Position numbers and translations under genes: made by a program. Source: Enterobacteria phage JenP1. Taken from it: a stretch of 60,754 bases of DNA. The stretch's first letter is position 1. Each line of letters opens with the position of its first letter. The notes beneath the pieces were generated by a model. The model did no database searches. It was not told where the DNA came from and was given only the letters and a program-made list of their open reading frames with translations. The stretch is from sequence record NC_029028.1. The stretch is one strand, 5' to 3'. This document shows, piece by piece, positions 56,351 to 59,629 of this stretch.

Positions 56351-56713
56351 ATGAACGAGAATATAGTTAAAGCCTGGTCTATGTTAAGACCACAGCTAAA
56401 AGACGATCGCGTCGCTTTTACTTTGTGTCCGACTAACGAGTATCGCCGACAGCTTGAAGAAGTGTTGCGCGAAGATCCTGAGTTTGTTCGCTGTGTGCAA
56501 CTGTCGCGTGAGTCATCCGTAGTACAGTTCGATCGCTTCCACCTTCGTTTGGTTTCTCATCACAGAGCCTCGTATGAAGACACTGTTATTCGTACGAGCG
56601 GCTTCCATTGTGACATTGCAATTCTTGATTGCAAATTGGACATTGAGCAGAAACAAGATTTATATAATCTCGCTCATGAACGTCACGGTGAACTGTTAAT
56701 TGTGGAAGTGTAA
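56351..56713 (+). CDS. hypothetical protein, first gene of rightward array
   Basis: 120 aa; RBS AAGGGGG before ATG. Confidence 0.45.
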   Translation: MNENIVKAWSMLRPQLKDDRVAFTLCPTNEYRRQLEEVLREDPEFVRCVQLSRESSVVQFDRFHLRLVSHHRASYEDTVIRTSGFHCDIAILDCKLDIEQKQDLYNLAHERHGELLIVEV

Positions 56714-56715
56714 TA

Positions 56716-57054
56716 ATGGCCAAAGATATCGTTATTCCGAAAATGTATTGTCAGCTCCGTGATGCTTTGTTACAGAGCGGTTGGATTATTAGTCACAGCG
56801 ATGTAAATGACACTTATATTGTTCTTATACCACCTGAAGGGACGATATCCTGCATTCTGCACTATATGCCCGAAGCGAAGACGGTTTACCCGAACGGTTC
56901 ATTCTTGCTACGCTTGCGCTCCGATACATGGAAGATCCAGACGGATACCTGTGCAATTGACGAGAATACCAGTAAAGAGTTTATTCGTAAGCTGAAGCAG
57001 ATGAATAAAATTTACGAGCATGTTAAATTTGACTTATTTAAGGAAGTTTTCTAA
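56716..57054 (+). CDS. hypothetical protein
   Basis: 112 aa ORF. Confidence 0.4.
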   Translation: MAKDIVIPKMYCQLRDALLQSGWIISHSDVNDTYIVLIPPEGTISCILHYMPEAKTVYPNGSFLLRLRSDTWKIQTDTCAIDENTSKEFIRKLKQMNKIYEHVKFDLFKEVF

Positions 57055-57494
57055 TGATTACCATGAAAGACCGTATCACCCATAAAACTCAGCAAAGCAT
57101 GATGGCTTGCATTCCTACCTGCCTTGCTATGCTTCTTGACAAAGACCCTAAGCAGGTGGATGACGAGTTCACAACGGATTATATTCGTGGTTTTACTGAC
57201 GTGTCGAACTATCTGTATAAGCACGGTGTCTTTGCGCAACCACATATCACCGCTGGTATGCACCAGATTCGACCTGGGCGCTTGTATCTTGCCACTGTAC
57301 CCTCTTTGCAGTTACCTGGGCTTTTCCATCAGATCATTATCGACGCTCGTTTTGATGGTGTAACCGTATACGATCCAGCGAAAGGTCTGGAAGGGAAACA
57401 ATACTATTCCTATGACCACATTGCAGAGGATAATGAGTTGGCATATCCTCTGCGGTCTTTCCTGATTGATTACGAAATTATATTACCGGAGTGA
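57054..57494 (+). CDS. papain-fold cysteine peptidase domain protein (C39-like)
   Basis: 146 aa; Q...MACIPTCLAML (Gln/Cys region) and downstream H/D-P arrangement HQIIIDARFDGVTVYDP resemble C39 peptidase domain. Confidence 0.45.
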   Translation: MITMKDRITHKTQQSMMACIPTCLAMLLDKDPKQVDDEFTTDYIRGFTDVSNYLYKHGVFAQPHITAGMHQIRPGRLYLATVPSLQLPGLFHQIIIDARFDGVTVYDPAKGLEGKQYYSYDHIAEDNELAYPLRSFLIDYEIILPE

Positions 57495-57497
57495 TTT

Positions 57498-57860
57498 ATG
57501 AGCTTGCAACGTTTTGACAATGCAGAACTCGCGTGTGAATTTGCAAAGCGCAAGTTCGCTAAAACAGGTACGCCGCGATGCGTGCACGCGGCTGTAGCGC
57601 AAAATGGGGCGAAATACTGGTACGTCGGTACGGTAGCTCAGATCAAGCGAAGATTCGCGACTACGCCCGAAATGCGCCGGCTTGTATCTGCCGCACTTGT
57701 ACGAAACAGACACTTGGATAAAGAGGAAATTTATCGGTTTCTTAGAAATTATACTGGTAAAGGGAATAGATTCCAGGTCGCGGCGAACGAATTTAATATT
57801 GGTCTTTCAACTGCTTATAAAATTTATTATGAATATCGGAAGACGAGCTTCAACAAATAA
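57498..57860 (+). CDS. putative DNA-binding protein with C-terminal helix-turn-helix
   Basis: 120 aa; C-terminal FQVAANEFNIGLSTAYKIYYEYRK HTH-like. Confidence 0.4.
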   Translation: MSLQRFDNAELACEFAKRKFAKTGTPRCVHAAVAQNGAKYWYVGTVAQIKRRFATTPEMRRLVSAALVRNRHLDKEEIYRFLRNYTGKGNRFQVAANEFNIGLSTAYKIYYEYRKTSFNK

Positions 57861-58122
57861 AACATGTTTATTTGTATGTAACCACGGTGATGAAATCGTC
57901 GGCATTGAAGCTCATCGCTGTGGTTGGAATGTCATTAAACGTCTTGCGAATAAGAAGTTTAAGTTTCGTCGTAAAGGGCAAGAAGTAACAATCTCCGTGT
58001 TTCACATAGAGAAACCGGAGGTTGCCAAGCGGGCGATTGATACATGCGTCGCTAAGTATAACATCAAAGACCGTAAGATTTATCACAATGATATTATCGG
58101 TCTTATTCTTGGAGATAAATAA
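57829..58122 (+). CDS. hypothetical protein
   Basis: first in-frame ATG 57829 (ORF track 57682 overlaps upstream gene); ~97 aa. Confidence 0.3.
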   Translation: MNIGRRASTNKTCLFVCNHGDEIVGIEAHRCGWNVIKRLANKKFKFRRKGQEVTISVFHIEKPEVAKRAIDTCVAKYNIKDRKIYHNDIIGLILGDK

Positions 58123-58616
58123 TGACTGCAATTGCTTATCGCAATGGGATACTAGCTGTAGATCGTCAGGTTACATGGGGTAATGTTGCAACAACTACAA
58201 ATAAAGTTCATACTGTCAATATTCCAGGGATTGGACTGTGCCTTGTTGCAATGTCTGGTAAACTACGTCCTGTAGATGATATTGTAGAACATCTGAAAAC
58301 TACGGTTCGTGGTCGTAAAGAACCTTTCTCGGATTTAAATCCAGATTCCCGTTATGGTATTGCAGTGACGCAGGAACTTGTCGTGTATCCTATCTACGGG
58401 GATGGTAAATTAGGCCTACCGGACACCAACGAATTTATTGCCGAAGGTAGTGCGTTTGAGTTCTTGATGGGCACAATGGCGGCAGGTTGCACCGCCGAAG
58501 AAGCTGTACAATTGGCCTGCCAGTATTGTGATAGCTGTGGTCAGGGTGTCAACTTCTATGACGTAGCTTATACTCTTAAAATGGCTCAGTGTACAACCGA
58601 GGAGGAACCATTTTGA
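58122..58616 (+). CDS. HslV/proteasome beta-subunit-like Ntn-hydrolase (threonine peptidase fold)
   Basis: N-terminus MTAIAYRNGILAVDRQVTWGN parallels HslV [24 protein letters not shown]; Thr directly after Met; internal Lys and GSA motif in register. Confidence 0.55.
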   Translation: MTAIAYRNGILAVDRQVTWGNVATTTNKVHTVNIPGIGLCLVAMSGKLRPVDDIVEHLKTTVRGRKEPFSDLNPDSRYGIAVTQELVVYPIYGDGKLGLPDTNEFIAEGSAFEFLMGTMAAGCTAEEAVQLACQYCDSCGQGVNFYDVAYTLKMAQCTTEEEPF

Positions 58617-58804: not shown

Positions 58805-59025
58805 GCGATCCTTCTAACGCACAATTAGCGGCTGCAAGAGTGTATATGCGCGGAGCTGCCGCTGAGATTGAGGTCTTGCCACAATTCGAGAAGCACGTAC
58901 AGCAACTCGAAGATAAATTCAAGGCCCTTAAAGACTTATGGGATAAGAAAGATGCTATAGCCTTTCTTCTTGCGATTCAATACTTGTCTATGGGAATTGG
59001 TGAGAAGGTATGTTCCTTAGAATAA
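58801..59025 (+). CDS. hypothetical small protein
   Basis: 74 aa ORF. Confidence 0.35.
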   Translation: MSDPSNAQLAAARVYMRGAAAEIEVLPQFEKHVQQLEDKFKALKDLWDKKDAIAFLLAIQYLSMGIGEKVCSLE

Positions 59026-59507
59026 TTAGTAAGGTTGCGCCTTGGATACTACTTGTCCTAATTGTTATTCTAGCCAACTGGGCTTATGACAATGCCATAG
59101 AAACAGCTAGAAAGGAGGGTTTCGATGCCGGTGTGTCGTACCAAAAAGAAACTCAGAAAGCGGTTGATTTCGAGGAGGAGAAACGAAGAGCATATGAGAA
59201 AGACGCTATCGAACGTCAGTACCAATCTCGCATTGAGTCTTTGGTTGCCGATCTTAATGATTATCGCGCTACTAATGACAGGTTGCACAACGAAATCGCA
59301 ACCATCCGTAAGTACCTCGGTGACGCTACCGGCCCTCAGCCCGACAGCAAGACAACCGCCCAGATCGCCCGTGTGCTCACCGAGCTGTATTCAGAAAGCG
59401 TCACAGAATACAGACAAGTGGCAGAAGAGGCTGAAAAGTATCGTCTTGCCGGCGAGCAGTGCGAACTACAGTATGATGCAATGCGAAATCCGCATAAAGA
59501 AAAGTGA
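59010..59507 (+). CDS. i-spanin (Rz-like) lysis protein
   Basis: N-terminal TM helix APWILLVLIVILANWA followed by charged coiled-coil periplasmic domain; o-spanin ORF overlaps in +1 frame. Confidence 0.65.
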   Translation: MFLRIISKVAPWILLVLIVILANWAYDNAIETARKEGFDAGVSYQKETQKAVDFEEEKRRAYEKDAIERQYQSRIESLVADLNDYRATNDRLHNEIATIRKYLGDATGPQPDSKTTAQIARVLTELYSESVTEYRQVAEEAEKYRLAGEQCELQYDAMRNPHKEK

Positions 59508-59538
59508 TAAAATACAAAGTCCTTGCCGGATTGCGTAA
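59194..59538 (+). CDS. o-spanin (Rz1-like) outer-membrane lipoprotein, overlapping i-spanin
   Basis: signal peptide ending in lipobox LLMTGC, Pro-rich mature region; start 59194 or 59257. Confidence 0.6.
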   Translation: MRKTLSNVSTNLALSLWLPILMIIALLMTGCTTKSQPSVSTSVTLPALSPTARQPPRSPVCSPSCIQKASQNTDKWQKRLKSIVLPASSANYSMMQCEIRIKKSDKIQSPCRIA

Positions 59539-59629
59539 CTAAACGTTCGATCTTAATTGCACATAATTGATTGTGTGCGTGTGATAATTCAACTATGCTC
59601 TATTCGGTTTAACTGAATGGAGCTTTTTT

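Follow-up and report, generated by a model that had tools for sequence, protein, structure and literature searches.

The stretch of DNA analysed here (hereafter the window) comprises 60,754 nucleotides of Enterobacteria phage JenP1 (NC_029028.1), a 9g-like Nonagvirus of the Queuovirinae that, around the locus under study, shares 92–94% identity with phages SE1, PD328, JenP2 and 9g. The subject of this study is an ATG-started open reading frame (ORF) at positions 57054–57494 of the plus strand, encoding a protein of 146 amino acids whose sequence is identical to the one quoted in a first-pass annotation of the window, where it had been proposed to be a stand-alone papain-fold cysteine peptidase domain resembling those of family C39. 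The ORF is the third gene of a compact rightward block (56351–56713, 56716–57054, 57054–57494 and 57498–57860). Its overlap with the preceding gene suggests that the two are translationally coupled in a tight operon. The segments QQSMMACIPTCLAML and HQIIIDARFDGVTVYDP, in which the first-pass annotation had recognized a Gln...Cys and a His/Asp-Pro signature, correspond to residues 13–27 and 92–108 of the protein. The features of the gene, all on the plus strand, are as follows.

57040–57046, plus strand: putative Shine-Dalgarno-like sequence AAGGAAG, read from the sequence, 7 nt 5' of the ATG
57052–57056, plus strand: TAATG stop/start overlap, by one base, with the upstream 112-aa gene (56716–57054)
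57054–57494, plus strand: coding sequence, with stop codon, of the stand-alone C39-type cysteine peptidase (146 aa)
57090–57092, plus strand: codon of Gln13, predicted oxyanion-hole residue, six residues before the Cys as in C39
57108–57110, plus strand: codon of Cys19, predicted catalytic nucleophile
57297–57311, plus strand: codons of Val82-Pro83-Ser84-Leu85-Gln86 (family consensus VPSLN), a family-specific strand before His92
57327–57329, plus strand: codon of His92, predicted catalytic base
57372–57377, plus strand: codons of Asp107-Pro108, predicted third member of the triad in a C39-typical Asp-Pro pair, 15 residues after the His

Homologues of the peptidase were found by tblastn in 159–181 phage records. 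An exhaustive hidden Markov model search over 1.84 billion cluster representatives retrieved 682 family representatives at E ≤ 1e-3 and 331 at E ≤ 1e-10, the 682 being clusters at 50% identity, and nearly all of them are stand-alone proteins of 135–160 aa. The ORF is a real, conserved gene, far beyond what chance could produce. Conservation was assessed in an alignment of 107 diverse members, 24–51% identical to the query and of about 30–40% identity overall. Residues Cys19, His92, Asp107 and Pro108 are found in all 107 members and Gln13 in 106 of them, so that both parts of the signature recognized beforehand are borne out by the family. Cys23, the pair Ala25-Met26, Tyr118 and the VPSLN strand (residues 82–86, each position conserved in 87–97% of the 107) are near-invariant as well, and this strand is a candidate element of the substrate groove. 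The same alignment bears on the possibility that the protein is a catalytically dead C39-like binding domain such as that found in the exporters of the HlyB type, which belong to the RTX (repeats-in-toxin) systems. The HlyB domain is known to be devoid of the catalytic Cys, whereas all 107 members of the phage family have Cys, His and Asp and all but one have Gln, which makes such a domain exceedingly improbable; judging from these residues, the window protein is probably catalytically active.

Between four Nonagviruses the ratio of nonsynonymous to synonymous substitution rates (dN/dS) of the peptidase gene is 0.14–0.23, about 0.19, indicating purifying selection. With 0.083, the dN of the gene is nevertheless the highest of the block, its neighbours showing 0.016–0.047. 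Between Nonagviruses, dS amounts to 0.76 in codons 1–75 (57054–57278) and to 0.27 in codons 76–146, an approximately threefold difference that points to recombinational exchange of the helical N-terminal lobe between lineages (mosaicism). Positive selection on the peptidase was considered and ruled out by the dN/dS of 0.19 together with the raised dS that accompanies the N-terminal divergence.

Scans of the window protein against Pfam and NCBIfam gave no match at E ≤ 1, a PADLOC scan gave no match, and PDB sequence searches with the protein itself, with a 15-sequence profile and with a 107-sequence profile returned nothing significant; among the PHROGs the protein was placed in phrog_4049, of 'unknown function'. 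At the family level, the Pfam family Peptidase_C39 (PF03412) was weakly matched by 26 of the 107 members scanned singly (best E = 2.4e-6), no other family being recurrent, and one family cluster carries a precomputed PF03412 annotation. A reference set of 11 transporter-borne C39 domains, taken from annotated plasmids and from PDB alignment output and including CvaB, MchF, LahT150, an NHLP exporter and a LanM-associated exporter, was compared with the 107-sequence phage family by hhalign. The two profiles aligned over 103 columns with E = 2.8e-10 and a probability of 96.8%, and the alignment pairs Gln13, Cys19, His92 and Asp107-Pro108 of the phage protein with Gln26, Cys32, His105 and Asp121-Pro122 of CvaB, respectively.

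The confident AlphaFold2 model of the window protein (predicted local distance difference test, pLDDT, 91.5; predicted template modelling score, pTM, 0.88) has a papain-like fold, the nearest structures being the C39 peptidase domains of PCAT1, LahT150 and ComA. Foldseek returned the same top matches. These are followed by PeiR (score 9.1), the PCAT1 PEP domain solved by nuclear magnetic resonance (9.0) and a C39-like protein of B. anthracis (8.6), and at a lower level by staphopains, a Cpe1/StbD-type toxin domain (7.6), Josephins and UfSPs (7.2–7.5), AvrPphB and papain-family enzymes. In the model, Cys19 opens the helix formed by residues 19–28 and lies inside the C-x3-C-L-A-M motif common to transporter C39 domains. 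Since conservation, structure and profile-profile homology, as three independent lines, agree with each other, the window protein is taken to be a C39-type peptidase. It belongs to family C39 at the profile level, though by itself it stays below the curated Pfam threshold. The label given by the first-pass annotation thus holds, and the profile search proposed for checking it produced a family-level match to C39, with both Cys and His present in every member, but a negative direct Pfam scan of the single protein. Likewise, no transporter is attached to the domain, as had been stated: the reading frame stops after residue 146, and no ABC transporter is annotated in positions 1–50000 of the 60-kb genome of SE1, the closest annotated relative.

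The exporter domains (CvaB, MchF, ComA, LahT and PCAT1; PF03412) share with the phage protein the order and spacing of the catalytic residues, i.e. Gln six residues before Cys, then His, and Asp-Pro 15–16 residues after His, as well as the C-x3-C-L-A-M helix motif. The phage protein differs from them in having neither an ABC transporter fused or nearby nor a double-glycine-leader substrate gene in its neighbourhood, in being too divergent for the Pfam model, in possessing the motifs VPSLN and Tyr118 of its own, and in its location on phage genomes, within regions of early or DNA-metabolism genes. A second group for comparison is formed by C39 peptidases that lack a transporter and act in the cytosol. 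Cpe1, an effector of the type VI secretion system, enters the cytosol and cleaves GyrB and ParE at the Gly-Gly of the sequence LHAGGKF (PMC12136450), and the CdiA-like StbD-CT (PDB 8ssm/8ssk) cleaves both proteins at LHAGGKF, too (bioRxiv 10.64898/2026.05.07.723447). The PDB entry 9l5u, named 'DUF4150 domain-containing protein', is a Cpe1-type toxin domain and matches the C39 domain of StbD at E = 1e-33. Like these toxins, the phage protein consists of a C39-type domain without a transporter and occurs in the same host range, Pseudomonadota, and its Cys19 is aligned to the Cys of Cpe1-type toxins. The toxins are, however, equipped with delivery modules (PAAR, VgrG, Rhs, CdiA), a cytoplasm-entry domain, an auto-processing linker and a downstream immunity gene, whereas the phage protein consists of the 146-aa domain alone, with no delivery, entry, linker or immunity parts.

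With a toxin profile of five Cpe1/StbD-type sequences, hhalign gave E = 6.4e-7 and a probability of 92% for the phage family versus the toxins, and E = 1.4e-11 for the toxins versus the transporter C39 domains. Judged by these profile comparisons, the phage proteins are a third branch of the C39 superfamily. Their distance from the exporter domains is about the same as that of the toxins, with which they have no special alliance. The remaining relatives are the stand-alone bacterial peptidases of the Peptidase_C39_2 or C39-like type (for example PDB 3erv from Bacillus anthracis) and the pseudomurein endoisopeptidases PeiR/PeiW/PeiP. Just one of the 107 phage members weakly matches PF13529. The chains of 3erv and PeiR are 200 and 228 residues long, compared with 146 in the phage protein, and the C39 domains of transporters are less structurally decorated than C39_2 proteins (PMC10318531). 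The phage protein differs from the C39_2 and Pei enzymes also by the absence of a signal peptide and by a linkage to lysis genes in one lineage only. Longer members of the phage family contain just a YunG-like domain and a zinc ribbon, and no toxin-delivery domains; these fusions were considered as a functional clue and dismissed, the extra domains being probably merged gene calls.

The genomic surroundings of the peptidase gene were compared all-vs-all, using every ORF within ±3.5 kb at 13 loci from 10 independent lineages. Except for the peptidase itself, no neighbouring gene family recurs between the 10 lineages, and neither a transporter, nor an immunity-like partner, nor a recurrent small substrate gene was present in the 13 contexts. 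A MazG-like gene considered as a recurring neighbour was not upheld by this comparison. For the most part, the peptidase gene is located among early genes or genes of DNA metabolism. Small hypothetical genes surround it in Samunavirus SM1 and Henunavirus, in Halocynthia phage JM-2012 it adjoins a thymidylate kinase gene, and on four metagenomic phage contigs it is found near genes for T7-type RNA polymerase, 5'-3' exonuclease, primase/helicase or ParB/PAPS-reductase/Mom/NinB/NinG. The sources of the family clusters are almost entirely viromes and metagenomes, with contigs of up to 228 kb; judged from these source labels alone, the family is near-absent from cellular genomes. The hosts named for the phages bearing it are Gram-negative, mostly gamma-proteobacteria.

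A solitary gene moving from phage to phage is a pattern typical of anti-defence genes. It could fit an isopeptidase that counters defences of the Bil type or of the type II CBASS type (cyclic oligonucleotide-based antiphage signalling system) by stripping off, in the manner of a deubiquitinase, the conjugates that ubiquitin-like proteins or CD-NTases form through a C-terminal glycine, and deubiquitinases do exist among the papain-fold enzymes directed at Gly-Gly. The structural matches of the model to such enzymes score below those to C39 domains, however, and neither the PDB profile search nor the Pfam scans of the family members revealed a sequence-level link to any deubiquitinase family. 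As the PADLOC scan was negative and no support was found in the literature, where no phage cysteine protease deconjugating ubiquitin-like proteins was encountered either, a deconjugase is considered very unlikely.

One placement stands out among the contexts. In both subfamilies of the Ackermannviridae the peptidase gene lies between the genes for the large (gp39+60-like) and medium (gp52-like) subunits of topoisomerase II, and in Shigella phage Ag3 (locus L004, 3095–6789) and Salmonella phage SeSz-1 (locus L021, 2071–5757) it abuts or overlaps the codons of both topoisomerase II genes. At the position of the LHAGGKF of GyrB, the topoisomerase II of Ackermannviridae has LYAGSNF and thus lacks the Gly-Gly. 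Together with the cytosolic cleavage of GyrB and ParE by Cpe1 and StbD-CT and with the DNA-metabolism setting of the other contexts, this could mean that the family is the first phage counterpart of the C39 topoisomerase-killer toxins. As a small, mobile protease it would cut GyrB and ParE of the host at the ATP-lid Gly-Gly, within the LHAGGKF of their ATPase domains, or else attack some other conserved host protein, thereby stopping the maintenance of the host chromosome; in Ackermannviridae the gene would then belong to the operon of a motif-less topoisomerase II of the phage that replaces the host enzymes. The adjacency to topoisomerase genes represents, however, a single lineage. No topoisomerase was found near the peptidase gene of SM1 or on the four metagenomic contigs, and none is annotated, nor is a prohead protease, in the same 50 kb of SE1; phages that have no such enzyme of their own might be harmed by the loss of host gyrase. 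The motif GSNF is generic for T4-type topoisomerases, which weakens the argument drawn from LYAGSNF. The difference in the motif is a weak point also because a single Gly-to-Ser change leaves cleavage by StbD-CT possible (bioRxiv 10.64898/2026.05.07.723447). Moreover, there is no immunity-like neighbour, and the family shows no closer kinship with the toxins than with the exporter domains. This special form of a host-directed protease is therefore unlikely. In SE1 (locus L024, 1–50000), a major head and a scaffolding protein are annotated and a prohead protease is not; the sole 'protease' annotation belongs to a 92-aa ORF in the replication region.

The nearest structural and sequence relatives of the phage protein are genuine double-glycine leader peptidases, and the first-pass annotation had proposed to search the genome for substrates with a Gly-Gly leader, naming the Gly-rich protein encoded at 23445–24152 as an example. 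The peptidase would then be a maturase that removes the leader from a phage peptide or protein, as the C39 peptidases of the AMS/PCAT type do. A regular expression, L-x3-E-L-x2-I-x-G-G, of limited sensitivity, was run over all ORF start variants in the window and detected no canonical leader on any plausible gene, the sole strict match being a spurious antisense ORF of 51 aa. The N-terminus of the Gly-rich protein, MSDMTLIPSGLGGG..., is devoid of the pattern of hydrophobic residues at –4, –7 and –12 and an acidic residue at –8, so that the suggested substrate found no support; the protein belongs to phrog_9288 (unknown function) and is encoded in the tail-fibre region, just after a tail-fibre-like gene. 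Since, in addition, no small neighbour co-varies with the peptidase over the 10 lineages and no ABC exporter was seen in the 13 contexts or in the 50 kb of SE1, a maturase appears distinctly unlikely. The Gly-rich protein itself, 235 aa in length, has an N-terminal third extremely rich in Gly and Trp (GGGFGGEAGAAAVGGGIGG...GWGGGGGWGGWGG), a Gln-rich middle part, Cys clusters (CCCE and a C-terminal GCCG) and a PTPPTPPT tract.

We therefore favour, with some reserve, the view that the peptidase is an active soluble cysteine endopeptidase from a divergent, phage-restricted and transporter-less C39 branch of clan CA, with a likely host target. Because the sequence contains no signal peptide or membrane segment (and no cell-wall-binding domain), the enzyme would be made in, and act in, the cytoplasm of the infected cell, where, by analogy with its relatives, it would make a site-specific cut after small residues at a site of the Gly-Gly type. 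With no substrate encoded beside the gene, the most likely and most parsimonious target would be a conserved host protein, and the gene would represent a host-takeover or counter-defence accessory gene moving horizontally between phages of Gram-negative hosts. The ATPase subunits GyrB and ParE of the host are one concrete, speculative candidate, put forward because of the analogy with Cpe1 and StbD-CT, the placement beside topoisomerase II in Ackermannviridae and the LYAGSNF motif.

Several points weigh against a host-directed peptidase of this kind. The host target is deduced only from the lack of a conserved phage-encoded partner, and the substrate may instead be a conserved protein of the phage whose gene lies at another place in the genome. 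In the 9g-like phages the gene is co-directional with the lysis and packaging genes, and a scan of the operon for sigma-70 promoters and terminators remained at background level (14 sites versus 12.8 expected). A literature search yielded no study of the phage family and no phage protease targeting gyrase.

The first-pass annotation had also described an unusual pair of protease-like genes just before the lysis cassette, the second member being the following gene, given here as context only.

58122–58616, plus strand: HslV-like gene, phrog_1040 'peptidase HslV family' (E = 6.5e-36), 628 bp downstream of the peptidase gene

On its 3' side follow genes for an Rz-like spanin, an endolysin and a holin, so that the described arrangement is present in the window. 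The HslV-like protein gave no Pfam, NCBIfam or PDB sequence match, and its label thus derives from phrog_1040 alone. The order of C39-like gene, one variable small gene, HslV-like gene and lysis genes is found in Nonagvirus, Seuratvirus CAjan and Vid5, and tblastn coordinates place both genes close together also in a few related 60-kb siphoviruses; in the neighbour analysis the HslV-like gene was common to the window, CAjan and Vid5 only. The synteny is limited to siphoviruses of the 9g/Seurat/Vid5 type and does not amount to a conserved module. Given that the HslV-like protein occurs in 33 phage records only, as compared with the 159–181 of the peptidase, and is confined to one lineage group, it was rejected as a functional partner.

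This neighbourhood could also suggest that the peptidase is an accessory of the adjacent lysis cassette, i.e. a cell-wall amidase or endopeptidase similar to CHAP, NlpC/P60 or pseudomurein endoisopeptidases. The combination of a closest match to CHAP or NlpC/P60 with an export or cell-wall signal and with lysis linkage was not found for the window protein, which has none of the export and wall-binding elements named above. Among the contexts compared, lysis genes lie close to the peptidase gene in the 9g/Seurat/Vid5 group only, and the window already encodes a dedicated endolysin. A role in lysis is thus highly improbable.

Some further observations were made in the surroundings of the gene. 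The HslV-like protein begins with Met-Thr, and Thr could be an N-terminal nucleophile after removal of the Met; in phage 9g the gene is apparently frameshifted, as it appears in two tblastn pieces. Between the 120-aa gene that follows the peptidase gene (57498–57860) and the HslV-like gene there is a gap of about 260 bp, which contains an ORF of 97 aa (MNIGRRASTNKTCLFVCNHGDE...) with no PHROG match. In ESCO3 and SE1 the two genes abut, and the segment 57829–58122 may be a lineage-specific insertion. The i-spanin gene (59010–59538 of the window) shows a dN/dS of about 0.6–3.4 between Nonagviruses, the signature of a second reading frame, and an ORF in the +2 frame with the lipobox LLMTGC, extending from about 59194 to 59538, past the i-spanin stop at 59507, is consistent with an overlapping o-spanin. 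A strong terminator-like hairpin with a 12-bp stem followed by TTTTTT is located between the spanin and endolysin genes (59597–59623) and ends a few bases 5' of the endolysin start codon.

With regard to the block that contains the peptidase gene, the homologue of its first gene (56351–56713) is labelled 'potential sigma factor' in the record of phage 9g, and divergent promoters upstream of the block were predicted by BPROM. The 120-aa protein has, as judged by eye, a C-terminal helix-turn-helix-like segment, FQVAANEFNIGLSTAYKIY, and in a Klebsiella relative a 'late transcriptional activator' is annotated beside the HslV-like gene. The genes at 56351–56713 and 57498–57860 may encode transcription regulators.

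Most GenBank records call the homologues of the peptidase hypothetical. The annotation itself is nevertheless not new, because a few records already name them 'peptidase C39 family protein', 'ABC-type bacteriocin transporter peptidase domain' or 'papain-like cysteine protease'. What is new is that a C39 branch has been outlined which is large (682 clusters at 50% identity), restricted to phages and stand-alone, in which the catalytic residues are intact and partner genes are absent, and that it has been linked to the recently described cytosolic C39 toxins. C39 peptidases have long been seen as parts of exporters of bacteriocins and quorum peptides, and it was only in 2025–2026 that transporter-less versions were shown to be interbacterial toxins cutting DNA gyrase and topoisomerase IV. 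The family is present in well-studied collections, such as the Nonagviruses of the 9g/BASEL set and the Vi1-like Ackermannviridae, so that the proposed host-directed activity is directly testable. If a host protein is cleaved, the phage peptidases would represent a new type of host-takeover or counter-defence enzyme and, at the same time, a compact sequence-specific protease with biotechnological potential.

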